Assembly: GCA_964371255.1 (NCBI GenBank) | Contig: CAYJKV010000004.1 | Span: 39,613-103,612 of the forward strand | Direction: 5' to 3' | DNA: 64,000 nucleotides | DNA from: an uncultured Candidatus Saccharibacteria bacterium | GTDB lineage: Bacteria; Patescibacteriota; Andersenbacteria; UBA10190 | Shown: positions 12,242-61,612 of the stretch, piece by piece | Numbering within the stretch: position 1 is the stretch's first letter | Layout: every line of letters starts with the position of its first letter | Notes under the pieces: generated by a model | Seen by the model: the letters and a program-made list of their open reading frames with translations, nothing else | What the model was told of the DNA's origin: nothing | The model's database searches: none | Made by a program: the position numbers and the translations under genes

Positions 12242-14280
12242 GCAGTGAGGTGTACCGATTGGTGCCCTTTTGTTCCGGCTGGGCGGTGTCTTAATCTCTT
12301 GTTTAGTGTTGTTTGGTGTATTAGATAAATTAATAGCAAGGATAGCCAAGTGGCTAGAAATAACGTTACTCCCAATTGGAACAAGGGGTCTTCGTACCTA
12401 ACGAGTATATGGGTAGTGTCGGCAGGTACATTGATCATGATTGGTCCATAGGCAGGAACAACTCGGCCAATCTTCCTGTCGTCAAAGTAGACGACGTAAC
12501 GGGGCAGGGGCGCGATATTAACAATTAACTGATGGGGGGTGTGGTCGGTGGGGTAAATGTTAACTTCATTGACACGAAATTCGTGAGGAACAGTCTTTTT
12601 TGGCTCGGTTGGACTATAGACATACGGTAGGGCATTGGTATTCTCGTAGAGGAGTATTGCCTCGTCTTGATAGAGTGGTTTTAGTTGGGCGTGCTGGTTG
12701 AAATAATTCTGGGCATTAATATTGTTGCGAGTAATAAGATAACGAACGCTCCAGGAGGATAAATAGTCTAGCAGGTCTTTGTCTGGAAATCCTAGAAAGA
12801 CCGCTTTTGCATCCAAGTATAAGGTTAGTTCGTAGTTAATTTTGGCAATCAAGGTGTCATAACCGGCGAAATCATTTAGTCCATAGAGTGAGGCAAAGTT
12901 ATATGTCGTGAAGGAGTAGTCTTCGTAGTCCAATTTATCTACAAAAGAAAAAGTGCGTCCACGCTCAGGCCGAATGTCTTTTTGGACGATTGTTAAAGGT
13001 GAGCTGAGTTCCTTGATGCTCCAGGCCGTGTCTTTGTTATTCCATACAACCAATATGTTTATTGCAAGGGAGAGAAACACTATTGAATAAATTGCTTTTT
13101 TCCCCAGTGCCTTACTTGTTTCAGCTACAGCAGAAGCAATGCCAATGATGGCTAAGGTTAAAAAGAAGATGAAGAAAGGAACGGTTTTATGCGCTCTAGC
13201 AAAATGGCTAATGATGGGTAATTCATAAAGATAACCATACAGTGACGTGCTGAGTAGGTAGGCAATGAGAGCGATCGTGCCATATAATGGCGTTCTGTGG
13301 GCTTTGGTTCGATGTCTGATTTTACGAACAAAAAGCAGAAGCAATAGAGCAAGATTGAATATCCCAACATAATATATGGAAGAGTTGGCTTTCCAAAGTG
13401 TTTGAGGGTGGTATTTAAATAGTTGTGCGTCTGTAAATGTTTTCAGTCTTGTAGGAAAAGACGAAAAGTCTGTTTTGGAGAGTGGTGTTGATCTGAAGTA
13501 AGAATTTATTTGAGCTTCATACATTGGTAATAGCAGTGGCGTGGACGCTAGCAAAAAAATCATTATGGAGAGCAAATATAGAGTCAATAAACTAACCGCA
13601 GGCTTAATTTCCCCCCGGTCTATTTTCTTGAGCATGATTGTGATAACGATCAAAAGTTCAAAAAATAATACCCAGAATGTATGCTCAACGTAACTGCCAA
13701 AGAAGAACCAGAGTTTTGGCAAGGTAAGCAGGACGGCAGATTTAATTTGCGGTTTAGTAGTAAATATGTTCAATAGCAGGAAATTGAGCGGGAGATATAA
13801 TATAAGATTGTTATCGGGAGGCCAAACTGCCCCAAGGGTTACAAGGTAGGGATATGTGCTCCAGACAAGAGAGCCTAGTAGGCACAGGGCTGGCGGTGTT
13901 TTGAGTTGTTTAAGAAACAAGAACATGACGACTGCTCCGGCGAGTCGGTAGAGGATCGCCATGATTTCTATAACGTGAAAAGTGTCGCTAAAAAACAACT
14001 TTGATAGTCCGAACGCGATGTATGGTAGGGGTGATAACACATTAGAGTGGGTGGACGGCAGATGTGTCTGGCCGAGACTCTGATGAAAATTAATTAAGGG
14101 TATGGTTTGGTAGTCAATGATTGAGCGCCAGTTATGTGTGTAATAAGACAAGTTGTAAGTAATACCGTCATAATTTGTAAAGAAAAGAGGGTGATTAGTT
14201 TCTAGGAAAAGCAGCCATATGCCTGTTAGCAAGATAGTGATAACTAGAAATTTGGTAATGATTAGTTTTTGTTGGGCCAT
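12142..14280 (-). CDS. large YfhO-like polytopic membrane protein with a roughly 300 aa extracytoplasmic C-terminal domain (putative glycosyltransferase)
   Basis: 712 aa with many TM helices in the N-terminal 400 aa and a soluble C-terminal domain ending in one last TM. Its 3-prime end overlaps the convergent gene by 100 bp. Confidence 0.5.
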   Translation of the reverse strand: MAQQKLIITKFLVITILLTGIWLLFLETNHPLFFTNYDGITYNLSYYTHNWRSIIDYQTIPLINFHQSLGQTHLPSTHSNVLSPLPYIAFGLSKLFFSDTFHVIEIMAILYRLAGAVVMFLFLKQLKTPPALCLLGSLVWSTYPYLVTLGAVWPPDNNLILYLPLNFLLLNIFTTKPQIKSAVLLTLPKLWFFFGSYVEHTFWVLFFELLIVITIMLKKIDRGEIKPAVSLLTLYLLSIMIFLLASTPLLLPMYEAQINSYFRSTPLSKTDFSSFPTRLKTFTDAQLFKYHPQTLWKANSSIYYVGIFNLALLLLLFVRKIRHRTKAHRTPLYGTIALIAYLLSTSLYGYLYELPIISHFARAHKTVPFFIFFLTLAIIGIASAVAETSKALGKKAIYSIVFLSLAINILVVWNNKDTAWSIKELSSPLTIVQKDIRPERGRTFSFVDKLDYEDYSFTTYNFASLYGLNDFAGYDTLIAKINYELTLYLDAKAVFLGFPDKDLLDYLSSWSVRYLITRNNINAQNYFNQHAQLKPLYQDEAILLYENTNALPYVYSPTEPKKTVPHEFRVNEVNIYPTDHTPHQLIVNIAPLPRYVVYFDDRKIGRVVPAYGPIMINVPADTTHILVRYEDPLFQLGVTLFLATWLSLLLIYLIHQTTLNKRLRHRPAGTKGHQSVHLTAHRLNINCFSSITSFIKKSFNTTTTKKPTTNDK

Positions 14281-51061: not shown

Positions 51062-51322
51062 GACTTAGATGAAACGGAGTATTAATAATAACCTCTATTC
51101 ATACCCTACAGAGGCCCGACAGTCAAAAGTTGAAAAAACTAGATCTTGACTTTTATAGAATCACAGACATGCTAAAGAGGTTCTGTTTTGTCATGTGTCA
51201 TAACAAACAAGGCGAGTAGTTGGAGGTTTGCCGCGGAGCAGAATTCTATAGTACTCGTCTTGGCAGCAGAACCAAGAATTTTGGCACAATATGGCAAGGG
51301 AAGAAAATTACTATTTTTACTT

Positions 51323-52858
51323 ATGGCTATGAAAAAGAGGAAGGCGCGTAAACCGGTAGTGCTGGTAGTTTTAGACGGCTGGGGAGTATTTGACGGCCGC
51401 GAACATAACGCGATTGAAATGGCTGATACGCCTTTTTATGACTATCTCTGGCAAACTTTTCCGCAGGCCGCTCTGGACGCGAGTGAAGAGAAGATTGGTT
51501 TGCCGGTGGGACAGATGGGCAATAGTGAAATTGGTCATATGACAATCGGAGCGGGCAAAATTATCGCGAATGATTTGGTACGGATAGCGCATGCCATAAA
51601 AGATAAGAGCTGGGAGGCCAATCCGGCGTTTACGACTTTATTTGAACATGTAAAGAAGTATAATTCGACTTTGCATGTGCAGGGCTTGCTGAGTCCGGGC
51701 GGCGTGCACAGTCACATGGATCACTTGACGGCATTTTTACGCACGGCTAAGCAGGCCGGAATCACCCAGGTGGTTATTCATGTGATTACGGATGGGCGAG
51801 ATACACCCCCGCACAGCGCGGCAGGTTACCTGCAACAATTAGAAGATAGTATAGATGAGACAGGGATTGGCTTTATTGCGACGGCTACCGGGCGTTTCTA
51901 CGCGATGGACAGAGATAATAATTGGGATCGGCTGGAAAAAATGGAAAAAGCTATTTTCGACTGCGCAGGCAAAGTGTGCCAACTGAAAAAGCCATCAGTG
52001 GTGCTGAACGAATTGTATGAGCAGGGAATGGCGGATGAACATATTGAGCCGATTGTTTTTTTGGATGATCAAGGACAAACCTATCCGATTAAAAAAAATG
52101 ATGGGGTCTTTTTCTTTAATTTTCGTCCCGATCGGGCACGAATGCTATCGCGTCGAGTGATGGATAGGTCAAAGCAGGAAAATTTATGTTTTGTTACGAT
52201 GACCCAATATGACGAGTCGTTTGAATGCCTGGCGGCCTTCCCGCCGGTGGGGATTGAAACAACACTAGCGGCGGAAGTGTCGAGAGCGAAACTGAAGCAA
52301 GCGCATGTCGCGGAAACGGAGAAGTATGCTCACGCCACATATTTTTTGAATGGCGGCCGGCAAGATCCATATGAAGGCGAAGCACAAATTTTAGTGGAGA
52401 GCAGAAAGGACGTGCTGACCCACGACTTGGCGCCAAAGATGCGGGCGAAAGAGATTGCCAGCAAAGTGGTAGAACAAATAACACGAGACACCGATTTTAT
52501 ATTTGTTAATTTTGCCAATGCAGACATGGTGGGACATACCGGTAACGAAACGGCCATTATTGAAGCGGTGGCCGAAGTAGATCGGCAGTTAAAACGAGTG
52601 GTGGAGGCGGCGCAGAAGAAAGACGGTGTGGTTTTAGTCACTTCGGACCATGGTAACGCTGAAGTGATGGTGGATCCGGCGACGGGGGAAAGGCATACGG
52701 CGCATACGCTCAACTTAGTCCCGGCAATTTTAACGGACGCTTCATGTCGTTTAAGGAAGCGTGGTACGCTGGCGGATATAGCACCAACGGTGCTAGCCCT
52801 ATTGGGTATACGCCAGCCGAAGGCGATGACTGGAAAGAATCTAATTATTACTAAATAA
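51323..52858 (+). CDS. gpmI: 2,3-bisphosphoglycerate-independent phosphoglycerate mutase
   Basis: VVLVVLDGWG..., catalytic Ser region GNSEIGHMTIGAG, and VTSDHGNAE near the C-terminus. The likely start is MAMKKRK at 51323. Confidence 0.9.
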   Translation: MAMKKRKARKPVVLVVLDGWGVFDGREHNAIEMADTPFYDYLWQTFPQAALDASEEKIGLPVGQMGNSEIGHMTIGAGKIIANDLVRIAHAIKDKSWEANPAFTTLFEHVKKYNSTLHVQGLLSPGGVHSHMDHLTAFLRTAKQAGITQVVIHVITDGRDTPPHSAAGYLQQLEDSIDETGIGFIATATGRFYAMDRDNNWDRLEKMEKAIFDCAGKVCQLKKPSVVLNELYEQGMADEHIEPIVFLDDQGQTYPIKKNDGVFFFNFRPDRARMLSRRVMDRSKQENLCFVTMTQYDESFECLAAFPPVGIETTLAAEVSRAKLKQAHVAETEKYAHATYFLNGGRQDPYEGEAQILVESRKDVLTHDLAPKMRAKEIASKVVEQITRDTDFIFVNFANADMVGHTGNETAIIEAVAEVDRQLKRVVEAAQKKDGVVLVTSDHGNAEVMVDPATGERHTAHTLNLVPAILTDASCRLRKRGTLADIAPTVLALLGIRQPKAMTGKNLIITK

Positions 52859-52874
52859 TTTATATTTATCTCTT

Positions 52875-54167
52875 ATGAAAATTGCGCATATTCAAGGCCG
52901 GCAGATCATTGATTCGCGGGGTAATCCAACGGTGGAAGCGGATGTAATGGTAGAAAATGACGTTATGGGTAGAGCGGCGGTTCCTTCGGGTGCTTCCACT
53001 GGAACTAACGAAGCGGTGGAATTGAGGGACGAAGATCCGAAGTATTTTAGAGGAAAAGGTGTGCAAAAAGCGGTAGTAAACGTGAATACGGAGATTGCTG
53101 AGCTATTAGTGGGGAAGGACGTGACTGACCAGACAGGGCTGGATCAGGCCATGATTGAGCTGGATGGCACAGCAAATAAAAAACGACTGGGCGCGAATGC
53201 GATACTGGCCGTGTCATTGGCGGTGGCGCAGGCGGCGGCGCAGGTTAAACAACAGTCATTGTTTGCATATATTCATGACATAAGCCAGACAAAAGAGCCG
53301 TTCAGTTTACCAATGCCGATGATGAATGTTATTAACGGAGGACAGCATGCGGCCGGATCCACAGATATTCAGGAATTTATGATTATTCCGGTAGGGGCGG
53401 CTTCATTCAGCCAAGCAGTGCAGATGGGCAGCGAGATATTCCATAGTCTGGCGTCAGTCTTAAGGAAAAAAGGATATAGTACGACGGTGGGTGACGAAGG
53501 TGGTTACGCCCCGGCAGTTAAACAAGGCAATAAAGAGGCGTTGGAGCTGATCAGTCTGGCGGTAAAGGAAGCGGGGTATGTTTTAGGGAAAGATGTGGTT
53601 TTCGGATTAGATGTGGCGGCTTCGGAACTGTACGAGAATGGATCGTATCTTCTCAAAACTGAAGGCAAACGATTGACCACCGAAGAAATGATTGCGTGGC
53701 TGCTATCTCTGGGCCAGGATTATCCCATTGTTTCAATAGAAGATGGCTTGGCGGAAGATGATTGGCCGGGATGGAAAACGCTGACAGCGCAGGCAGGTGA
53801 ACGGCTCCAGATTGTGGGTGATGATTTGCTGGTGACGAACGTGTCGTTCTTAAAGCGGGCGATAAAAGAGAAGGCGGGCAATGCTATTTTAGTGAAATTG
53901 AACCAGATTGGCACGTTAACTGAAACCATTAAGGCGGTGCAGCTGGCGCAGCAGCATGATTGGCAGGCAATAATTTCCCATCGATCGGGAGAAACAGAAG
54001 ATACGACTATTGCTCATTTGGTAGTAGGGTTAGCGACCGGTCAGATTAAAACTGGATCGATGTCACGTACTGACCGAGTGGCTAAATACAATGAATTGCT
54101 GCGCATTGAGGAAGTCTTGGGGAAGGAAGCAAAGCTGGCTAAAAATGTATTTGAAATACAAACGTAG
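52875..54167 (+). CDS. eno: enolase
   Basis: MKIAHIQGRQIIDSRGNPTVEADV..., SHRSGETEDTTIAHLVV, 430 aa. Confidence 0.97.
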   Translation: MKIAHIQGRQIIDSRGNPTVEADVMVENDVMGRAAVPSGASTGTNEAVELRDEDPKYFRGKGVQKAVVNVNTEIAELLVGKDVTDQTGLDQAMIELDGTANKKRLGANAILAVSLAVAQAAAQVKQQSLFAYIHDISQTKEPFSLPMPMMNVINGGQHAAGSTDIQEFMIIPVGAASFSQAVQMGSEIFHSLASVLRKKGYSTTVGDEGGYAPAVKQGNKEALELISLAVKEAGYVLGKDVVFGLDVAASELYENGSYLLKTEGKRLTTEEMIAWLLSLGQDYPIVSIEDGLAEDDWPGWKTLTAQAGERLQIVGDDLLVTNVSFLKRAIKEKAGNAILVKLNQIGTLTETIKAVQLAQQHDWQAIISHRSGETEDTTIAHLVVGLATGQIKTGSMSRTDRVAKYNELLRIEEVLGKEAKLAKNVFEIQT

Positions 54168-54263
54168 GCCTGCATCAAGCCCGGAGTCAAAGTGGGACGG
54201 ATGATAATGGAATAAAGAGGAAATGGACTGGCTTGGGTGACTTTCAGGCTATTGATCGCGGAC

Positions 54264-54296
54264 GGCTATAAGCGGTACGCTCGGGGTAATTTTTTA
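54264..54296. repeat. partial copy of the 5-prime module of the 44.9/49.4 kb repeat element (ggctataagcggtacgctcggggtaatttttt), 3-prime of eno
   Basis: ggctataagc-N-cgggg matches copies 1 and 2. It is followed by a T-run. Confidence 0.4.
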
Positions 54297-54454
54297 TACA
54301 AAAAAACGCCGGATTGGCGATAAATGTAGTATTTATTAATTGTACCACTGGTTTTTGCATGCCTGGTGGAAAAGTGCCTGAATGATAGATAAAAACGCAA
54401 CGCAGGCATATTGACGGGTATTTTTTTGGACGACGTTTGTTGTATGGTTAGGGT

Positions 54455-54712
54455 ATGTCAAAGAAGTGGTGTGTATACATCGTTAGATGCAAGGACAAAA
54501 CTTTGTATACGGGATATACCAATGATTTAGAAAAGAGAGAATTATCACACAATAAGGGAATAGGGGCGAGGTATACCAGACAGAGGCGGCCGGTTCAGGT
54601 CATATATGTTGAGGAGTTTAGTAGTAAAGGAAAAGCTTTGAGTCGGGAATATGAAATAAAACAGATGACGAGAGAGGAAAAGGAAGAGTTAATCAGACGA
54701 AGCAACAGTTAA
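54455..54712 (+). CDS. GIY-YIG nuclease family protein (small UPF0213-type)
   Basis: WCVYIVRCKDKTLYTGYTNDLEKRELSHNKG...QVIYVEEF is the GIY-YIG signature. 85 aa. Confidence 0.8.
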   Translation: MSKKWCVYIVRCKDKTLYTGYTNDLEKRELSHNKGIGARYTRQRRPVQVIYVEEFSSKGKALSREYEIKQMTREEKEELIRRSNS

Positions 54713-54761
54713 TGACAGGGCAGGGTTTGACTTGGCCGGCAGTAAATAATAGCTTGGATAC

Positions 54762-54965
54762 ATGAATGGACAGAGAAGGGAAGATATTTATGCCGGGCTG
54801 ACAGTAGACATTGTCTTGAAACAAGACCAGCGAACAGGAAAGCTGACGCGTGGGGTTGTGCAGGATATTCTGACTAGCTCTTCATTTCACAGCCGAGGAA
54901 TCAAAGTGCGTCTGATAACCGGGGAGGTTGGCCGCGTGCAGAATATTTTGAGTGATAACGATTAA
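54762..54965 (+). CDS. YwbE/DUF2196 family small protein
   Basis: ...GLTVDIVLKQDQRTGKLTRGVVQDILT...HSRGIKVRLITGEVGRVQNI closely matches the conserved YwbE pattern. 67 aa. Confidence 0.6.
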   Translation: MNGQRREDIYAGLTVDIVLKQDQRTGKLTRGVVQDILTSSSFHSRGIKVRLITGEVGRVQNILSDND

Positions 54966-55040
54966 ATACTTCAGAGGAAGAAACGTTTTACAGTATATAT
55001 TTGACAGGCATTGGTGGATGTTATAGTGTAATTTACAAGG

Positions 55041-56930
55041 TTGTTTGTAACTAACACTATAATGAAATCACTATTTAGGTCGCAGTTAACATACAAAATC
55101 CTAAAATTTCTTAGCAGGAACCAGAAGTCGCACTATTTGGCGGAAATAGCCAGGAGCATTCAGTCCGATCCGGGTAACACCACAAAAGAATTAAAACGTT
55201 TAACTGAAGAGGGGTATTTGGTTCAGAGCGAAGAAAATGGCCGAAAATATTATGCATTAAGCGTTGACCTGCCGCATTTTAGTAAACTTGTCGGTTTATT
55301 AGAAAATGAGGCTGATCAAGAGTTCCAAAAATACTTTAGTATAGAGTGGATGCTGGGAGAGGACATTCCTAACATGACCCCATTTTTTAGCATGATCTGG
55401 CTAAATTGTTTTGTAGACGAGTTTGCCCAGCCAGGTGGCAAAGCTTATCGCAAGATTGCAGGAATCTACAAAGATTATCACTTATGGTTTTATTTCGAGA
55501 AAGAGAGTGCTAAGGAGGTCGCCAGCCACATTGTCAATCGTTTTGCGGCTGACCCTGACTTCATGACGCAAATCAACAAAGAGATTGTGGCTCATTCAGA
55601 TAAACTGCGTTCCTATTCCGAGACTATTCCGGAGACTGGATTGGAAAAGCTGTCGGCAAAGCAATTGTGGCAGATATTCAAACAGCATGAAGATATACAT
55701 ACAGCTTATTATCAGTGGGGATGGCTGCCGGTGGCGGCAGATATGTTTACTGATGAGTTGACGGAGAAAGGTAAAGTGGTTTTGCGCGAACACGGGGCTG
55801 GAGAAGATGAAGTGAATGAATATTTGGTGGTACTTACCCAACCGACCAAACCGTCGCTGATGAAACAAGAAGCTGATGAGCTTATTGATATCGCCTTGGA
55901 CGTGCAAAAGGACGAAAAACAAGCCGCTTTATTTTACGAGCTAATGCGGAAGTTCAAAGAGGACGAGGTTAAGGAGTTTGGGCTGTATACCCACAGCCCA
56001 CAATACGAAAAGGCTTTAGAAGAAAAGGTGCGGGAATTGATTAGTGAAATACCGCAAGATATATTGCAACGTTTACAAGAGCATCAGGCTAAGTATTTTT
56101 ACACTAGATTTCTTTTTACAGAGGAACAAGGCGTTTACAGTTTTGAGCATTATCTGAAGGGGTTGGTGCGTTTAGTTTGCCGAGGCGACGAGTTGCGACT
56201 AGAAAGAGAAAAGAGCAAATGGGAAATTAAAGTAGCTGAAAAAAAGAAAAAAGAGGTTAGTAGAACAATGCACCTTGAGTCCAAATGGATCACTTTCTTT
56301 GAAGAGTGGGGTGGCTTTATGGTGACGAAGATTTACCGCCGATATGCCCAGTTGTTTGCGCTGTCTAAAATGAGCGCTGTATTGGAAGAAATTGGCCGAC
56401 GACTAAGCTTACCGCAAAAGGAAGTTAGTTTTATGACCAGCGAAGAGATTGAAGCTGCTTTGCTTGGCAAGGCAATAGATAAAGATGTGATTAAGGCGCG
56501 GGTGCCGTTTTCTGTCTACTATGCTGATAAGGATACGCATAAGTTTTACATTGGCAGCGAAGCTAAACGTGCCGCAAAGCTTATTCAGAAAGAAGTGATT
56601 GAACAGGTTAATGAATTTACGGGGCAATGTGGCTGTCAGGGTTATGCTAAAGGCAAGGTTAAAATAGTTAATGTGGTGGCAGATATGAGTAAAGTAGTGC
56701 CGGGAGATATTTTGGTTTCCATATCAACACAGCCTGATCTATTACCGGCTATGAAAAAGGCAGCGGCATTTGTGACGGAACAAGGGGGGGTGACATCTCA
56801 TGCTGCGATTGTGGCGCGGGAGATGAATAAACCGTGTGTGATTGGCACAAAGATAGCAACCAAAGTTTTGAAAGATGGTATGGAAGTTGAAGTGGACGCA
56901 ACAAGGGGAAGGGTGACACTATTACAGTGA
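55041..56930 (+). CDS. winged-helix (ArsR/MarR-like) DNA-binding domain, a large middle domain and a C-terminal PEP-utilizer mobile (swivel phosphohistidine) domain
   Basis: N-terminus LTYKILKFLSRNQKSHYLAEIARSIQSDPGNTTKELKRLTEEGYLVQSEENGRKYYAL (wHTH). C-terminus ...GGVTSHAAIVAREMNKPCVIGT (PEP-utilizers His motif). 629 aa. It is the first gene of a five-gene coupled operon. Confidence 0.7.
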   Translation: MFVTNTIMKSLFRSQLTYKILKFLSRNQKSHYLAEIARSIQSDPGNTTKELKRLTEEGYLVQSEENGRKYYALSVDLPHFSKLVGLLENEADQEFQKYFSIEWMLGEDIPNMTPFFSMIWLNCFVDEFAQPGGKAYRKIAGIYKDYHLWFYFEKESAKEVASHIVNRFAADPDFMTQINKEIVAHSDKLRSYSETIPETGLEKLSAKQLWQIFKQHEDIHTAYYQWGWLPVAADMFTDELTEKGKVVLREHGAGEDEVNEYLVVLTQPTKPSLMKQEADELIDIALDVQKDEKQAALFYELMRKFKEDEVKEFGLYTHSPQYEKALEEKVRELISEIPQDILQRLQEHQAKYFYTRFLFTEEQGVYSFEHYLKGLVRLVCRGDELRLEREKSKWEIKVAEKKKKEVSRTMHLESKWITFFEEWGGFMVTKIYRRYAQLFALSKMSAVLEEIGRRLSLPQKEVSFMTSEEIEAALLGKAIDKDVIKARVPFSVYYADKDTHKFYIGSEAKRAAKLIQKEVIEQVNEFTGQCGCQGYAKGKVKIVNVVADMSKVVPGDILVSISTQPDLLPAMKKAAAFVTEQGGVTSHAAIVAREMNKPCVIGTKIATKVLKDGMEVEVDATRGRVTLLQ

Positions 56931-57877
56931 TGACCTACACCAAGACTTTCTCGGAAATATCAAAAAGCGATACGGCCATAGCCGGTGGCAAAGGGGCGTC
57001 ACTGGGCGAAATGACGCAAGCAGGCATTCAAGTGCCGCCTGGATTTGTGATTCTGGCACCCGCTTTTGATGAGTTTCTGAAAATTACTGACCTAAACGTG
57101 GAGCTGGATGCCATTTTGGACCAAGTGAACCATGAGGTAATGCACGAGGTGGATGACGCGTCAGAAAAGATTAAAGCCCTGATTTTGGGTAAAGAAATAC
57201 CGGCAAGTATGGCCAAGGAAATTATTTCTGCTTTCGATGAGTTAGACGCGGAATTCGTGGCTGTTCGTTCCAGTGCCACTTCTGAAGACTCCGCGGCGGC
57301 AGCGTGGGCGGGACAATTAGATACTTATCTCAATACGACCGAAGAAAATTTACTGGCCAATGTTAAAAAATGCTGGGCTTCGCTCTTTACGCCGCGGGCC
57401 ATTTTCTATCGTTTTGAAAAGGGATTACATGGGACACCAATTTCGGTCGCTGTCGTAGTCCAAAAAATGATCCAATCTGAAGTTTCAGGTATCGCTTTTT
57501 CGGTTCATCCTGTCACGCAAGATTACGACCAGCTAATTATTGAAGCTGGCTTCGGGTTGGGGGAGGCGATTGTCTCCGGCTCAGTTACACCAGACAGCTA
57601 TGTGATCGAAAAAAGCAGTTGGAAGTTACTCGATAAAAATATAACTACTCAAGAGCGGGGATTATTTCGTAAGGACGAAGGCGGCAATGATTGGCAAGAT
57701 ATTCCAACCACGAAAGGTGAGCAGCCGACGCTAACTGATGATGAAGTTATAGGCCTGGCAAAACTCATAGTTAAAATTGAGAGGCACTATGGTTTTCCCG
57801 TTGATGTTGAATGGGCACGAGAGAAGAATAGCTTTTATATCGTTCAAAGCCGTCCGATTACGACTCTGAATAAATAA
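56927..57877 (+). CDS. stand-alone PEP synthase/PPDK N-terminal ATP-grasp nucleotide-binding domain protein (PPDK_N)
   Basis: GGKGASLGEM...GIQVPPGFVI..., VAVRSSATSEDSAAAAWAGQLDTYLN and VVVQKMIQSEVSGIAFSVHP match the PEP synthase/rifampin phosphotransferase ATP-grasp domain. 316 aa, with no swivel or PEP-binding domain. ATGA overlap with the upstream gene. Confidence 0.8.
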   Translation: MMTYTKTFSEISKSDTAIAGGKGASLGEMTQAGIQVPPGFVILAPAFDEFLKITDLNVELDAILDQVNHEVMHEVDDASEKIKALILGKEIPASMAKEIISAFDELDAEFVAVRSSATSEDSAAAAWAGQLDTYLNTTEENLLANVKKCWASLFTPRAIFYRFEKGLHGTPISVAVVVQKMIQSEVSGIAFSVHPVTQDYDQLIIEAGFGLGEAIVSGSVTPDSYVIEKSSWKLLDKNITTQERGLFRKDEGGNDWQDIPTTKGEQPTLTDDEVIGLAKLIVKIERHYGFPVDVEWAREKNSFYIVQSRPITTLNK

Positions 57878-57890
57878 CGAAGAGAAAGTT

Positions 57891-59189
57891 ATGGCAGATA
57901 ACAAATGGCATTATCTTGGCAGATGGATTGAACCGGTATTGTCATGTGGTCTATGGTTGGAATGGAAAAACTTAACGGATGATATAGGACTTCATTTTAA
58001 AGGAGATATCGCCGTTTTGGATGGCTATCAGTATATTCTTAACGAAGATGTTAAAACAGCCAGTAAATTTTTGAATGACACAATCGTAAATAGCCCAGAA
58101 TGGTTTAATGTTTTTTTCAGACTTTGTGACGAGAAAATAGAGAAAGTATTATCGTTTAAGAATAAGAACGACCTGAGCGGCTTATTGATCGCTGCCACTA
58201 ATTCCTTGGGGCTAGTTACTATTCTGATAATGTTTGATATTGGGTATCAGAAATACATCAAAAAGATAGCGAAAAGACAAAACTTTGACGAAGAAGAATT
58301 TTTCTCTTTGGTCAAGCCGCATCGAAATACTTTGTTAATGGACTATATTCAGGAACTTAAGCAGCTGGATAAAAACAGTGAAGAGGCAAAAGAAAACTTT
58401 ATCAAGAAATATGGTTGGGTAGGAAAACATGTATTTCTGGGTGATGGTTTAACGCGTGAAAAGCTGGAACAGGAGCTGATTGATATTCCCAAACAAAAAA
58501 GTGCAAAAACCAAAGAAAGTATTAAGAAGTTGCCAAAAAAGTTGGCTGACCTATTGTCCCTTGGAAACAAGTTCGCTTTTTACCGCTCTTATATAGTTGA
58601 GTGCACCAATAGTGTCGTCTATGAGTACTGCCCAATTGTTAAAGAACTTGGCGAAAAGCGTGGCTTAATTTGGGATGATGTTTTACTTTTAGATTATCAG
58701 GAGGTTATTGACTTAAATGAGAAAAATGAAAAGCCTCACAATTTCGAGAAAAGGAGAAATGGCTACGGGAAAATAATAAAAGACGGCAAGAAAGTTATTG
58801 TCACGGGTGCCAGTTTAGAGAAGGAATTGAACAGGTTTCGGGAAAAAGTTGATAAAGATGTAAAAGAGATAAAAGGAATGGTTGCCTCTAAGGGGGGTAT
58901 CATTATAGGCATTGTGAGGGTTGTAGAGGAGTCGGCAATAATTTCCAAAATGAAGGAGGGTGATATCTTGGTGGCTAACGAGACTACTCCAGATTACGTT
59001 GTGGGCATGAAAATTGCTGGGGCTATTATAACCAATCAAGGAGGTATAACTTCTCACGCCGCAATTACCAGCAGGGAAATGGGTATTCCTTGTATAATCG
59101 GGACGAAAATCGCCACCCAAATTCTCAAAGACGGAGATTTGGTGGAAGTGGATGCAGAGAAGGGGATTGTGAGGAAGATTAATGGCTGA
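57891..59189 (+). CDS. PEP-utilizer mobile (swivel) domain protein with a unique N-terminal domain (paralog 2)
   Basis: C-terminus ...GDILVANETTPDYVVGMKIAGAIITNQGGITSHAAITSREMGIPCIIGTKIATQILKDGDLVEVDAEKGIVRKI. The roughly 320 aa N-terminal region is unrelated to known domains. Confidence 0.75.
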   Translation: MADNKWHYLGRWIEPVLSCGLWLEWKNLTDDIGLHFKGDIAVLDGYQYILNEDVKTASKFLNDTIVNSPEWFNVFFRLCDEKIEKVLSFKNKNDLSGLLIAATNSLGLVTILIMFDIGYQKYIKKIAKRQNFDEEEFFSLVKPHRNTLLMDYIQELKQLDKNSEEAKENFIKKYGWVGKHVFLGDGLTREKLEQELIDIPKQKSAKTKESIKKLPKKLADLLSLGNKFAFYRSYIVECTNSVVYEYCPIVKELGEKRGLIWDDVLLLDYQEVIDLNEKNEKPHNFEKRRNGYGKIIKDGKKVIVTGASLEKELNRFREKVDKDVKEIKGMVASKGGIIIGIVRVVEESAIISKMKEGDILVANETTPDYVVGMKIAGAIITNQGGITSHAAITSREMGIPCIIGTKIATQILKDGDLVEVDAEKGIVRKING

Positions 59190-59200
59190 CAAAGAAGGTT

Positions 59201-60253
59201 ATGGATATTAATAGTTTTGAGAGATCAGACTGGAATCAAATATGGGCAGGCGATTGGAGTTTGCTCTCCTGTTCGCAATTTGGCGAGCAGTACACGAAAA
59301 CTCTTATCGTCAATGGTAAAGTGTTTATGTCCCAAACTGTTCTTATGATTGAGGATGGTAAGAGCGCTGGCTTTATGACGCAGGCTGACAAAGACGCCTT
59401 TGGTAAGCATTTAGCCCAGGAGGTTGTTGATAATCCCAGCCGTGTCCAAGAAATTGCGGCTAATTTTAAACGACAGGTTGATTTGACGATGGAGTTGATG
59501 AATAAGTATAAAACCAGTGAAATCACCAAAGAAATTTACGAAGCTTTCTGGGAGCGCATACTGGAATACTACAAACCGCATGTGAATGTTAAGTATATTG
59601 TTGATTATCTTGATCCAGAACTGTTGAAAAAATATTTACCGGAGCTGGAAGAAGCACGGGTGTACGCTGAGCCTGTTTTCAAGCACTCGGAAGAATTTAT
59701 GCAGGCTATGGCGCAGCAACAAGGGGCTAAAATTGGTTATCCCACTGAACTAATATTGTGCTTGTTGATAGAAGAACTGCCATCGCTATGGAAGAGCGAA
59801 GCATTGCCAGCACAAGTAGTATTGCGACAGAGATATGATAGAAGTGCGTTGTTAGTTGATCTGTCTGATCAGTTGCTTTGCGTTGGTGATGAGGTGAGCG
59901 AGATTGATCAGTTTATCCATGGAGCGACGGAAGATGAAGTAATCAAAGGAGCAACAGCGTACCCAGGGCACGCGAAAGGAACCGTGCGAATTATCTTTGA
60001 TCCGACTAAAGCTGATCATTTTCAGAATGGCGACATTTTAGTAACTCACATGACGCGGCCGGAATACTTACTGATTATGAAAAAGGCTGCGGCTATCGTG
60101 ACTGAGGCTGGCGGCATATTGTCGCATGCGGCCATCACGTCACGCGAATTAAAAAAGCCGTGTGTGATAGGGACGAATAAGGCTACCAAGATATTGAAAG
60201 ATGGAGACCTGGTTGAGGTAGATGCGGATAAAGGGATTGTGAGGAAAATATGA
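59201..60253 (+). CDS. PEP-utilizer mobile (swivel) domain protein with a unique N-terminal domain (paralog 3)
   Basis: C-terminus ...GDILVTHMTRPEYLLIMKKAAAIVTEAGGILSHAAITSRELKKPCVIGTNKATKILKDGDLVEVDADKGIVRKI. Confidence 0.75.
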   Translation: MDINSFERSDWNQIWAGDWSLLSCSQFGEQYTKTLIVNGKVFMSQTVLMIEDGKSAGFMTQADKDAFGKHLAQEVVDNPSRVQEIAANFKRQVDLTMELMNKYKTSEITKEIYEAFWERILEYYKPHVNVKYIVDYLDPELLKKYLPELEEARVYAEPVFKHSEEFMQAMAQQQGAKIGYPTELILCLLIEELPSLWKSEALPAQVVLRQRYDRSALLVDLSDQLLCVGDEVSEIDQFIHGATEDEVIKGATAYPGHAKGTVRIIFDPTKADHFQNGDILVTHMTRPEYLLIMKKAAAIVTEAGGILSHAAITSRELKKPCVIGTNKATKILKDGDLVEVDADKGIVRKI

Positions 60254-61353
60254 AGAAGGATGGGAGTAATATTGCTGCTCGTATTAAGGAATTGAAACTG
60301 AAGCCAGGACTGCGCCGGGACATTTCGCTCTTTGGGGAAAGTTGTATAGCGCTCGGCTATACTCGAAATCTAAAGGAATTAACTGGTTTCGGCGTAAGTG
60401 CCTTTGGGGGGATAAGTATCGAGAATCAATATTTATCATTAATTGATGTTGAGGATTTATCCAGAAAGGTTGATATTTATTTAAGTCAACTTGGATCGGA
60501 AAGTTTAATTGGGGGAGAGCTAGATCGATTTTATACTCGATACAAGCATGAGCGTCAAGTATATGAGAAGATTTGGGCGGCTTACCAGGCTCGGAAGCCG
60601 GAGGATTATCTTAGGAAAATTGTGAGTTTATATCCTGACCATGCGGCGACGGTCGGGTTTTACAACAGCTTAATGCGTTATTTGGGAGAGGAAGAAAGCA
60701 AGGGACAATTGTCACCAAAGCTGGTAAGCCGCATAGGAATGGAGAGAAACGAAGTAGCTGGTCTTTATCCGAAAATCGAAAGGATATTAAAGTTATTGGC
60801 GGAGAAATTTTCAGAGACGGAGGGGGAGGTAGGGGAGATGATCAGGTTTTGTTTACGAGGCGAGATTCAGCAATGGTTAGAGAGTGGCGAGTTAGCAGGA
60901 GAAACTGAACTTGGAGAGCGGCAGCGGCAATACGTTCACTTGCGGATAGCGGAGTCTGATGAAGAATTATTATCCACTGACAACGGGGATTATGTAGCAA
61001 TAAAGGAGTGGTTATTTGGGAATCAATCAAATTCGACGGGAGTTATCCGAGGCGTGGGAGCATTTCCAGGCAAAAGATCAGGTGTGGTGTATAAGGGAGA
61101 CAAGACGGTTATTTCGGTGCCTACATATGATTTTATATTGGTAGCGGTGCAGACGCATCCTGATTGGGTACCATTAATCAAAAGAGCCAAAGCGATAGTG
61201 ACTGATGAGGGGGGTCGCTTATGTCATGCGGCTATAACAGCGCGGGAACTTAAGGTTCCTTGTGTCATTGGCACCAAAATGGCCACGCAAATTCTAAAAG
61301 ACGGTGATCTAGTGGAAGTGGATGCAGCGAAGGGGATAGTGAGAAAAATATGA
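60250..61353 (+). CDS. PEP-utilizer mobile (swivel) domain protein with a unique N-terminal domain (paralog 4)
   Basis: C-terminus ...HPDWVPLIKRAKAIVTDEGGRLCHAAITARELKVPCVIGTKMATQILKDGDLVEVDAAKGIVRKI. ATGA overlap with the upstream gene. Confidence 0.75.
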   Translation: MKKDGSNIAARIKELKLKPGLRRDISLFGESCIALGYTRNLKELTGFGVSAFGGISIENQYLSLIDVEDLSRKVDIYLSQLGSESLIGGELDRFYTRYKHERQVYEKIWAAYQARKPEDYLRKIVSLYPDHAATVGFYNSLMRYLGEEESKGQLSPKLVSRIGMERNEVAGLYPKIERILKLLAEKFSETEGEVGEMIRFCLRGEIQQWLESGELAGETELGERQRQYVHLRIAESDEELLSTDNGDYVAIKEWLFGNQSNSTGVIRGVGAFPGKRSGVVYKGDKTVISVPTYDFILVAVQTHPDWVPLIKRAKAIVTDEGGRLCHAAITARELKVPCVIGTKMATQILKDGDLVEVDAAKGIVRKI

Positions 61354-61387: not shown

Positions 61388-61612
61388 ATGAAGATTTTGG
61401 TACAAATAAAACCGCGATCAAGCCAGGCGAAGGTGGAACAGATTAATGATGGAGAGTATAAGGTGTGGGTGCGGGCGGTGCCGGAGAAGGGTCAGGCGAA
61501 TGAGGAGATGCAGCAGCTGTTGGCGGATTATTTTCGAGTCAAAAGAGCAGCGGTGCGGCTGGTGATCGGAAAAACGGCGCGGGAGAAGCTAGTGGAGATT
61601 ATCGGGAAGTGA
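61388..61612 (+). CDS. DUF167/YggU family protein
   Basis: 74 aa. ...VRAVPEKGQANEEMQQLLADYFRVKRAAVRLVIGKTAREKLVEI fits the YggU pattern (P.dGkAN..l..fla.......v.iv.G..sr.K.v.i). Confidence 0.65.
   Translation: MKILVQIKPRSSQAKVEQINDGEYKVWVRAVPEKGQANEEMQQLLADYFRVKRAAVRLVIGKTAREKLVEIIGK

Follow-up and report, generated by a model that had tools for sequence, protein, structure and literature searches.

We describe here a gene, W1, in a 64,000-nucleotide (nt) stretch of DNA from an uncultured Candidatus Saccharibacteria bacterium (GTDB lineage Bacteria; Patescibacteriota; Andersenbacteria; UBA10190). The stretch is taken from contig CAYJKV010000004.1 of assembly GCA_964371255.1 (positions 39,613 to 103,612, forward strand) and is called the window throughout; all coordinates are those of the window. 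W1 encodes a protein in which an N-terminal winged helix precedes the acceptor-binding and phosphohistidine domains of a dikinase, and it is followed by a gene for an ATP-grasp subunit, here called G, and by three genes for further phosphohistidine proteins. We propose that W1 is probably bifunctional, an enzyme that is also the autorepressor of its operon, which contains the sole ATP-grasp gene, in the manner of BirA and PutA. That W1 binds DNA and represses, what chemistry it performs and what its effector might be are inferences from the evidence given below.

A single long + strand open reading frame (ORF) fills 55041-56930 in the ORF list, and reading it from TTG 55041 gives 629 amino acids (aa). 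The start of W1 is placed at ATG 55062, in agreement with public gene calls. Aligned full-length homologues open at this ATG with MK(N/S)LFKS or, more broadly, with M-K/E-x-L-F-x-S, a form that includes 44/44 W1 orthologues from the loci described below. TTG 55041 was rejected on these grounds and on the position of the predicted operators, because operator 2 (55045-55059) would fall within the coding sequence if that codon were used. The winged helix, which the original prediction allowed might precede the true start, lies downstream of both codons. An AlphaFold2 model of W1, based on 55 homologues (predicted local distance difference test, pLDDT, 89.2; predicted template modelling score, pTM, 0.82), together with the sequence gives the following layout, in which PEP stands for phosphoenolpyruvate, RPH for rifampin phosphotransferase and PPDK for pyruvate phosphate dikinase.

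55062-56930, + strand: W1 gene, 622 aa, comprising a winged helix, an RPH-like acceptor-binding domain and a swivel phosphohistidine domain.
55083-55259, + strand: winged helix-turn-helix domain, aa 8-66, modelled as helix-helix-helix-strand-strand.
aa 73-92: long linker helix in the model.
55347-56501, + strand: central alpha/beta plus helical domain, aa 96-480 (alpha/beta plus all-helical, aa 96-~480, in the model), homologous to the RPH rifampin-binding domain and HpeH; putative acceptor-substrate site.
56511-56921, + strand: swivel (PEP-utilizers mobile) domain, aa 484-620, also in the model; the His580 codon, 56799-56801, lies in GGVTSHAAIVAR.

The gene had first been read as a direct fusion of a winged helix to a phosphohistidine domain; both domains are indeed in one ORF, separated by a domain of ~385 aa (aa 96-480). 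A search covering 5.8 billion proteins yielded ~96 full-length homologues (~625 aa; 49-59% identity; 95-100% coverage, nearly all 99-100%), and almost all of the named ones are labelled Patescibacteria. Because these proteins retain the architecture, it is not a chance arrangement. A second set of homologues, ~535-545 aa long, covers 85% of the query and is without the N-terminus; orthologues at 45-50% identity have no DNA-binding domain. Automatic annotations met in this search include 'phosphohistidine swiveling domain-containing protein/ArsR family regulator'.

The N-terminus of W1 is a genuine ArsR/MarR-like winged helix, as had been predicted from the sequence. Its modelled fold consists of three helices plus a beta hairpin wing, and ArsR, MarR and PadR repressors are among its Foldseek matches in the PDB. 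In Pfam searches with full-length W1, a cluster of sub-threshold winged-helix families (EarA, MarR, IclR and HTH_27) is returned for this region, with EarA at 21.8 bits (cut-off 22) and MarR at 19.6 (cut-off 24.6); with the first 92 residues alone EarA passes (24.4 vs 22), MarR reaches 23.3 vs 24.6 and HTH_5 15.3 vs 22. The recognition helix comprises aa 37-49 (GNTTKELKRLTEE) and the wing aa 53-66 (RKYY), and basic or polar residues at K35, N39, R42, K61 and K62 on the helix and wing are conserved in the family.

Eighty metagenome loci were gathered with an alignment of the N-terminal half, and their ORFs were classed by BLAST against the window's five operon proteins as W1 (orthologue with the winged helix), O (orthologue without it), W2 (more distant paralogue with its own winged helix), H (other swivel-His paralogue) or G (ATP-grasp gene). 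A scan of a genome collection with the full-length alignment was swamped by swivel-domain matches, chiefly from distant relatives. The 200 nt upstream of W1 were aligned from 37 non-redundant loci, and a position matrix was built from the palindromes found. The alignment revealed two tandem 15-base-pair (bp) palindromes, TTGTyT-N3-ArACAA, of which the canonical pair is TTGTCTTATAGACAA-N6-TTGTCTTCAAGACA. In 27/37 loci there is a pair at exactly 21 bp spacing, its sites almost always placed at -40 and -19 relative to the ATG, and the same pairs occur at two more loci of close relatives, L166 and L167. Shuffled upstream sequences gave such a pair in none of 200 sets, and none was found upstream of orthologues without the winged helix (0/32 loci). 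In ~400 kb of flanking DNA, sites scoring at least 14 bits lie almost exclusively before W1, with a few before a W2 paralogue. The first four orthologous loci showed no obvious common palindrome and no adjoining ATP-grasp gene; the pattern appeared with ~37 loci. Thus, the palindromic operator for which a search upstream of the gene had been suggested exists and is conserved across orthologous loci, and the comparative operator evidence gives the proposed transcription-factor role a sound footing.

Most of the orthologous promoters have a -35 element TTGACA or TTGACT, and their -10 element (TAtTAT or TAATAT) abuts or overlaps operator 1. This operator also covers the expected transcription start, and operator 2 occupies the short leader. 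Because the operators lie over the -10 element, the start and the leader, the layout is that of a repressor. In ~13 W1 loci (e.g. L101, L104, L105, L107, L109 and L117-L119) there is additionally a conserved TTGTCAAT element at about -82 to -105 from the ATG, ~30 nt 5' of the -35, which may represent a third half-site or, read from the opposite strand as ATTGACA, a divergent -35.

The window has a predicted operator pair in the same place, with these elements.

55001-55006, + strand: -35-like hexamer TTGACA, read from the sequence and found at the equivalent position in most orthologous loci.
55022-55029, + strand: -10-like region, overlapping operator 1; a putative assignment.
55024-55038, + strand: predicted operator 1, TAGTGTAATTTACAA (TAGTGT-AAT-TTACAA), at -38 from the ATG.
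55045-55059, + strand: predicted operator 2, TTGTAACTAACACTA (TTGTAA-CTA-ACACTA), at -17 from the ATG.

The -10 element may be TATAGT (55022-55027), for which the spacer measures 15 nt, or TAGTGT (55024-55029), for which it measures 17 nt. A consensus promoter scan missed the promoter at 55001, which has an imperfect -10 or a 15-nt spacer, and it was assigned from the orthologous loci. The two operators are 21 bp apart and are reverse complements of each other except for the central triplet, and together they form an inverted repeat with 18-nt arms (55021-55062). This is the only inverted repeat in the 64-kb window with at least 16/18 complementary positions and a gap of at most 12 nt, and none of 5000 shuffles produced one; exact copies of the operator motif in the 64 kb are these two only. 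Both the position and the 21-bp spacing match the -40/-19 pairs of the orthologues.

The sequence of the window pair deviates from the canonical one, and the recognition helix of the window protein is likewise an outlier in its family, at the conserved positions 35, 38, 40 and 42.

Helix position 35: S in the window; K in 41/47 family members.
Helix position 38: G in the window; A in the family.
Helix position 40: T in the window; V or I in the family.
Helix position 42: K in the window (R42K); R in 45/49 family members.

These helix deviations (S35, G38, T40, K42) coincide with the deviation of the operators. The helix of W2 paralogues, ANVHKEL, also has K at position 42, and their sites are TTGTAT-N3-TTACAA or TAGTAT-N3-TTACAA; one such site, TAGTATTTTTTACAA at L109, is identical to window operator 1 at 12/15 positions. 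Judged from these alignments, recognition helix and half-site appear to have changed together, in few independent events, and this joint change supports the window pair as a real operator. The best window matches to the canonical R42-type matrix are 13906-13920 (TTGTTTAAGAAACAA, 13.7 bits) and 55406-55420 (TTGTTTTGTAGACGA, 12.4 bits), the latter within the W1 coding region; both are probably due to chance.

The W2 paralogues (~604 aa) have one TTGTAT-N3-TTACAA-type site upstream of their -35 and, from the -10 box to the ATG, a long inverted repeat whose sequence varies by locus while its symmetry is kept (in the upstream 100 nt of L101:9984, L104:9972, L106:3199, L109:2925, L111:3619, L116:211 and L120:7612). 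Either a co-evolving operator or an element of structure might account for this repeat. For the window, it is conceivable, if improbable, that the repeat at 55021-55062 forms a hairpin, in leader RNA or in DNA, or is palindromic by chance, and that autoregulation has been lost in this lineage: the canonical matrix fails to recognise the window sites, and the W2 repeats, with their locus-variable sequence, look more like conserved structure than like an operator. Against this, the uniqueness of the repeat among the 64 kb and its absence from all the shuffles argue that it is not fortuitous, the register of 21 bp and the orthologous operator position are retained, and the half-sites keep the TTGT/ACAA core and resemble the K42-type sites. 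Furthermore, the left arm overlaps the likely -10, so the repeat would not be fully transcribed. An RNA element in the leader was also rejected; the same overlap disfavours a hairpin, and Rfam at gathering thresholds gave no match there or anywhere else in the 64-kb window.

DNA-binding domains of other types are found at the same position in this enzyme family. Seven of the 32 O-class loci encode a different N-terminus of ~45 residues (MVKALIEL...NLVKAKHG...IDFIVKRF), among them L004:1806, L134:1306, L139:7836, L146:4677 and L163:5234, and several of them are in DPANN-type archaeal contexts with promoters of the B recognition element (BRE)/TATA kind. Between the TATA box and the ATG of these genes there are 10 copies of the hexamer ACTAAG in seven 60-nt regions, vs 0.19 expected. 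AlphaFold2 models this N-terminus as a disordered stretch followed by two helices, and it has no Pfam match and no PDB sequence match; its assignment as a ribbon-helix-helix, made from the model, is tentative. A neighbouring paralogue at L166 (L166:4249-5928) has an Xre-type HTH_26 domain (E 3e-11) fused to a swivel-His protein, which makes a third class of DNA-binding head within the gene family, the W2 paralogues P0163 and P0168 meet the Pfam thresholds for MarR, and a relative from Micrarchaeota carries an archaeal winged helix. This recurrent, independent gain of DNA-binding heads argues that transcriptional feedback is general to the enzyme system. A fourth N-terminal variant of the same orthologue (MAYLYKKKIGNKEYYYLR...YLG), without a match in Pfam, is seen in P0104, L148:7800-9602 and L130:6794-9499, and in the last of these an ATP-grasp domain is fused at the C-terminus (902 aa).

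These data also bear on whether the winged helix contacts DNA. Winged helices are able to mediate protein-protein contacts, and the full-length Pfam matches are sub-threshold, so that the domain might serve for dimerisation or for docking to a partner while the palindromes are bound by another regulator or belong to the promoter architecture. We regard this as very improbable. The palindrome pair is tied to genes with the winged helix (27/37 vs 0/32 loci), the conserved K35, N39, R42, K61 and K62 lie on the recognition helix and wing, half-site changes track helix changes, and other types of DNA-binding domain substitute at the same position.

The remainder of W1 marks it as a predicted enzyme. 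Pfam places a PEP-utilizers domain (PF00391) at aa 554-623 of the 629-aa reading (E 1.8e-26), and in the PDB this swivel domain matches its counterparts in PEP synthase, PPDK and enzyme I. The top Foldseek match of the W1 model in the PDB is the Listeria RPH (5hv1, 5fbt, 5fbu; E 2.5e-13 over ~680 columns). The catalytic motif GGVTSHAAIVAR, with His580 of 622 aa, is invariant across 55 homologues. The split architecture and the mechanism of two-component small-molecule dikinases have been defined for HpeHI, in which, as in CreHI and PpsAB, the swivel domain bears the catalytic motif GGxT(S/C)HAA(I/V)(I/V)(A/S)R (PMC12167813). This motif is found in W1, within ~50 residues of the C-terminus, and the other features of two-component RPH-type dikinases, an RPH-like acceptor domain and a separate ATP-grasp partner, are present as well. 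By architecture, W1 is thus the H component in a split dikinase of the HpeHI/PpsAB type that acts on small molecules, the subunit for acceptor binding and phosphate carriage, and by analogy with the family its system would phosphorylate an acceptor at the expense of ATP, releasing AMP and Pi. This places W1 apart from the simple regulator, composed of a winged helix and a His domain, that had been envisaged.

PEP synthase and PPDK were rejected as identities. The PEP/pyruvate TIM-barrel domain (PF02896) has no Pfam match in any of the five operon proteins, and NCBIfam PEP_synth models match the swivel or ATP-grasp parts only, at 111-120 bits, far below the cut-offs of 598-740. Neither Pfam nor NCBIfam finds a PRD, EIIA/B or HPr domain in W1. 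An anti-phage defence system was also rejected: the PADLOC match is confined to the generic winged-helix region (PDC-M05A E 4e-8, CasR), and PADLOC gave no match on the other four operon proteins.

Taken by itself, the central domain delimits a family with 347 representative clusters (50% identity; E <= 1e-3), whose proteins are mostly ~500 aa long. Since orthologues without the DNA-binding domain keep the same invariant central-domain residues as W1, the enzyme function appears to be primary. The second possibility raised at the outset, a phosphotransfer protein recruited to DNA, is unlikely in view of these orthologues and of high-scoring sites almost only at the gene's own promoter. A related proposal, in which the dikinase would be anchored to DNA by its winged helix and phosphorylate a DNA-associated or nucleic-acid substrate, is to our mind the least credible of those considered. 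The analogy is with glucan water dikinase, which carbohydrate-binding modules direct to starch. This enzyme shows that dikinases can use targeting modules for polymer substrates (PMC13553574), and one distant relative of W1, P0177, is fused to nucleoside-phosphorylase and HD domains. The tethering proposal is opposed by the sequence specificity of the sites and their restriction to the gene's own promoter, by the existence of orthologues without a DNA-binding domain and by the resemblance of the central domain to a small-molecule pocket domain. In P0177 (1468 aa) the two added domains, of which the first is PNP_UDP_1 of the nucleoside-phosphorylase superfamily, are joined to an X-His-PPDK_N unit, which may hint at nucleosides or nucleotides as acceptors in some cases.

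The operon W1-G-paralogue 2-3-4 combines one ATP-grasp gene with four phosphocarrier/acceptor proteins whose N-terminal parts differ.

56930-57877, + strand: G, ATP-grasp (PPDK_N) subunit, 315 aa (Pfam PPDK_N E 1.6e-95; public gene call).
57891-59189, + strand: paralogue 2, 432 aa, variable N-terminal domain plus swivel His (Pfam PEP-utilizers E 2e-26).
59201-60253, + strand: paralogue 3, 350 aa, variable domain plus swivel His (Pfam, NCBIfam).
60250-61353, + strand: paralogue 4, 367 aa, variable domain plus swivel His, overlapping paralogue 3 by 4 nt.

G encodes only the PPDK_N ATP-grasp domain, and its start ATG overlaps the W1 stop (TGATG). Paralogue 2 has no DNA-binding domain and, in NCBIfam, is similar to the C-terminal part of RedH/PigC/RPH. 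Of the 26 informative non-redundant loci, 21 have G downstream of W1 in the same orientation, and in 13 of these it is the next gene. Single-chain fusions occur in both orders, X-His-PPDK_N (L130, P0181, P0188 and P0205) and PPDK_N-X-His (P0144), and therefore support the partnership of W1 and G. Co-directional clusters of at least three swivel-His genes are present in 41/80 metagenome loci, with up to 9 such genes per locus and a maximum of 11 in the genome collection, and none of the 80 metagenome loci has a second ATP-grasp gene. The resulting hub-and-spoke clusters, in which a single PPDK_N gene accompanies many genes for 'variable domain + swivel His' proteins (e.g. L019, L015, L128, L132, L135 and L138), are found in both Patescibacteria and DPANN archaea.

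Directly 5' of the operon (51188-54965) are genes for a cofactor-independent phosphoglycerate mutase, enolase, a small GIY-YIG protein and DUF2196, and a DUF167/YggU gene follows it at 61388-61612. In the four orthologous loci with annotation that were examined, the orthologue has none of these neighbours beside it (0/4). The + strand GC skew is ~0.2-0.35 over most of the window and 0.06-0.16 at ~42-52 kb.

In the mechanism that we propose, G would present ATP, and the swivel His580 would accept the beta-phosphate with release of AMP and Pi, as expected from the family. The swivel domain would then hand the phosphate to a small-molecule acceptor held in the central RPH-like domain. The winged helix of W1, presumably in dimers, would bind the two 15-bp operators on the same face of the DNA and cover the -10, the transcription start and the short leader, repressing W1-G-paralogue 2-3-4. 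Because the operon holds the only ATP-grasp gene, W1 would thereby determine how much of the common charging subunit is available to every swivel-His paralogue. The least certain step is the release of repression, which would most likely be governed by the state of the enzyme: acceptor bound, docked to G, or with its His phosphorylated.

A ligand-gated switch of the BirA/PutA type, put forward by analogy, is at least as likely as a phospho-switch. It is a doubtful idea that DNA binding by W1 is gated by phosphorylation of its own swivel His, so that the protein would read flux through the hub network and feed back on the gene for the charger. If this were true, W1 would represent a third form of phosphohistidine-based transcriptional control beside two-component systems and PTS/PRD regulators (PTS, phosphotransferase system), and one peculiar to Patescibacteria and DPANN archaea with their reduced genomes. 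A stronger version, close to the phosphorelay-type regulator of the original prediction, holds that W1 is mainly a transcription factor switched by phosphorylation of His580 from G, the central domain serving mainly as a sensor or phosphatase site; it refines the enzyme-repressor proposal rather than opposing it, and we consider it comparably doubtful. Every homologue with the winged helix has the swivel His motif unchanged, W1 is the family member most often found directly 5' of G, to which it is translationally coupled, and the level of phosphorylated His would report ATP-grasp activity relative to acceptor availability. The His domain and the winged helix are, however, at opposite ends of the chain with ~400 residues and no sequence link between them, the invariant central residues in orthologues without the DNA-binding domain point to a primary enzyme role, and ligand-gated enzyme-repressors such as BirA and PutA are a simpler precedent.

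Several observations weigh against the view that W1 is an enzyme and the autorepressor of its operon. A clean operator pair is missing within 120 nt in 10/37 loci, some of which (L091, L096, L001 and L083) have sites further upstream. W1 is solitary in 5/26 informative loci, with the ATP-grasp gene absent within 7-10 kb downstream, so that control of G is not universal. Pfam support for the winged helix is borderline at the sequence level, and the canonical matrix scores the window sites at only -0.7 and 0.2 bits; the predicted operator assignment in the window draws on position, spacing, the uniqueness of the inverted repeat and the single R42K co-variation. Throughout, DNA binding, repression, phosphotransfer and substrate are what we infer. 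With these points taken into account, we still hold the enzyme-repressor proposal to be the probable one.

Patescibacteria and DPANN archaea have very few recognisable regulators and much conserved gene content of unassigned function. The predicted operator, TTGTyT-N3-ArACAA in two copies 21 bp apart, offers a directly testable regulatory circuit in these uncultivated organisms. The system itself, a single ATP-grasp subunit with many paralogous acceptor-specific phosphocarriers, is conserved among ultra-small symbionts from both domains, and metabolic reconstructions probably list it wrongly as PEP synthase or PPDK. Should its acceptors prove to be scavenged metabolites, it could explain the trapping of host-derived nutrients.

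Split RPH-type dikinases and enzyme-repressor fusions are each already known. The literature searched yielded no account of a dikinase subunit that bears a DNA-binding domain (an HTH-dikinase fusion), nor of clusters with one ATP-grasp gene and many carriers in Patescibacteria or DPANN archaea. The nearest systems are HpeHI of Rhodococcus, CreHI of Corynebacterium and the phenylphosphate synthase PpsAB of Thauera, which share with W1 the adjoining ATP-grasp gene, the RPH-like domain with a C-terminal swivel and the swivel motif GGxT(S/C)HAA. The HpeHI-type reaction, ATP + acceptor + H2O -> AMP + Pi + phosphorylated acceptor, proceeds via phosphohistidine (PMC12167813), and the same chemistry is presumed for W1. 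Beyond the swivel domain the likeness is seen by structure only. W1 adds an N-terminal winged helix and a conserved auto-operator; one ATP-grasp gene serves four swivel proteins here and up to 11 elsewhere; and its system is hosted by Patescibacteria and DPANN archaea, not by organisms that degrade aromatic compounds. The RPH of Listeria (5hv1, 5fbt, 5fbu) unites ATP-grasp, rifampin-binding and swivel domains, in that order, in a single chain, has no DNA-binding domain and is 13-18% identical to W1, and nothing suggests that rifampin is a substrate of W1.

As regulators, ArsR/SmtB and MarR repressors differ from W1, which is without their metal-site or MarR-type dimerisation helices and whose sensor would be an enzyme module of ~550 aa. 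PTS-linked regulators (the PRD-containing LicT, MtlR and LevR; EI-Ntr) resemble W1 in that transcription is tied to phosphohistidine transfer from a PEP-utilizer-type swivel, but W1 is without PRD, EIIA/B and HPr, and its donor would be ATP via an ATP-grasp subunit and not PEP via enzyme I. BirA joins a winged helix to biotin ligase and PutA a ribbon-helix-helix to proline dehydrogenase, and NadR is likewise an enzyme-repressor. The logic of W1 appears analogous, with no homology: a small N-terminal DNA-binding domain is carried on an enzyme, and the operators overlap the promoter of the enzyme's own pathway, which couples catalysis to repression. The catalytic domains of the three proteins are unrelated to that of W1, and we know of no precedent among them for coupling through a mobile phosphohistidine domain. 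A dikinase subunit that doubles as a repressor would thus join the few enzyme-repressors such as BirA and PutA.

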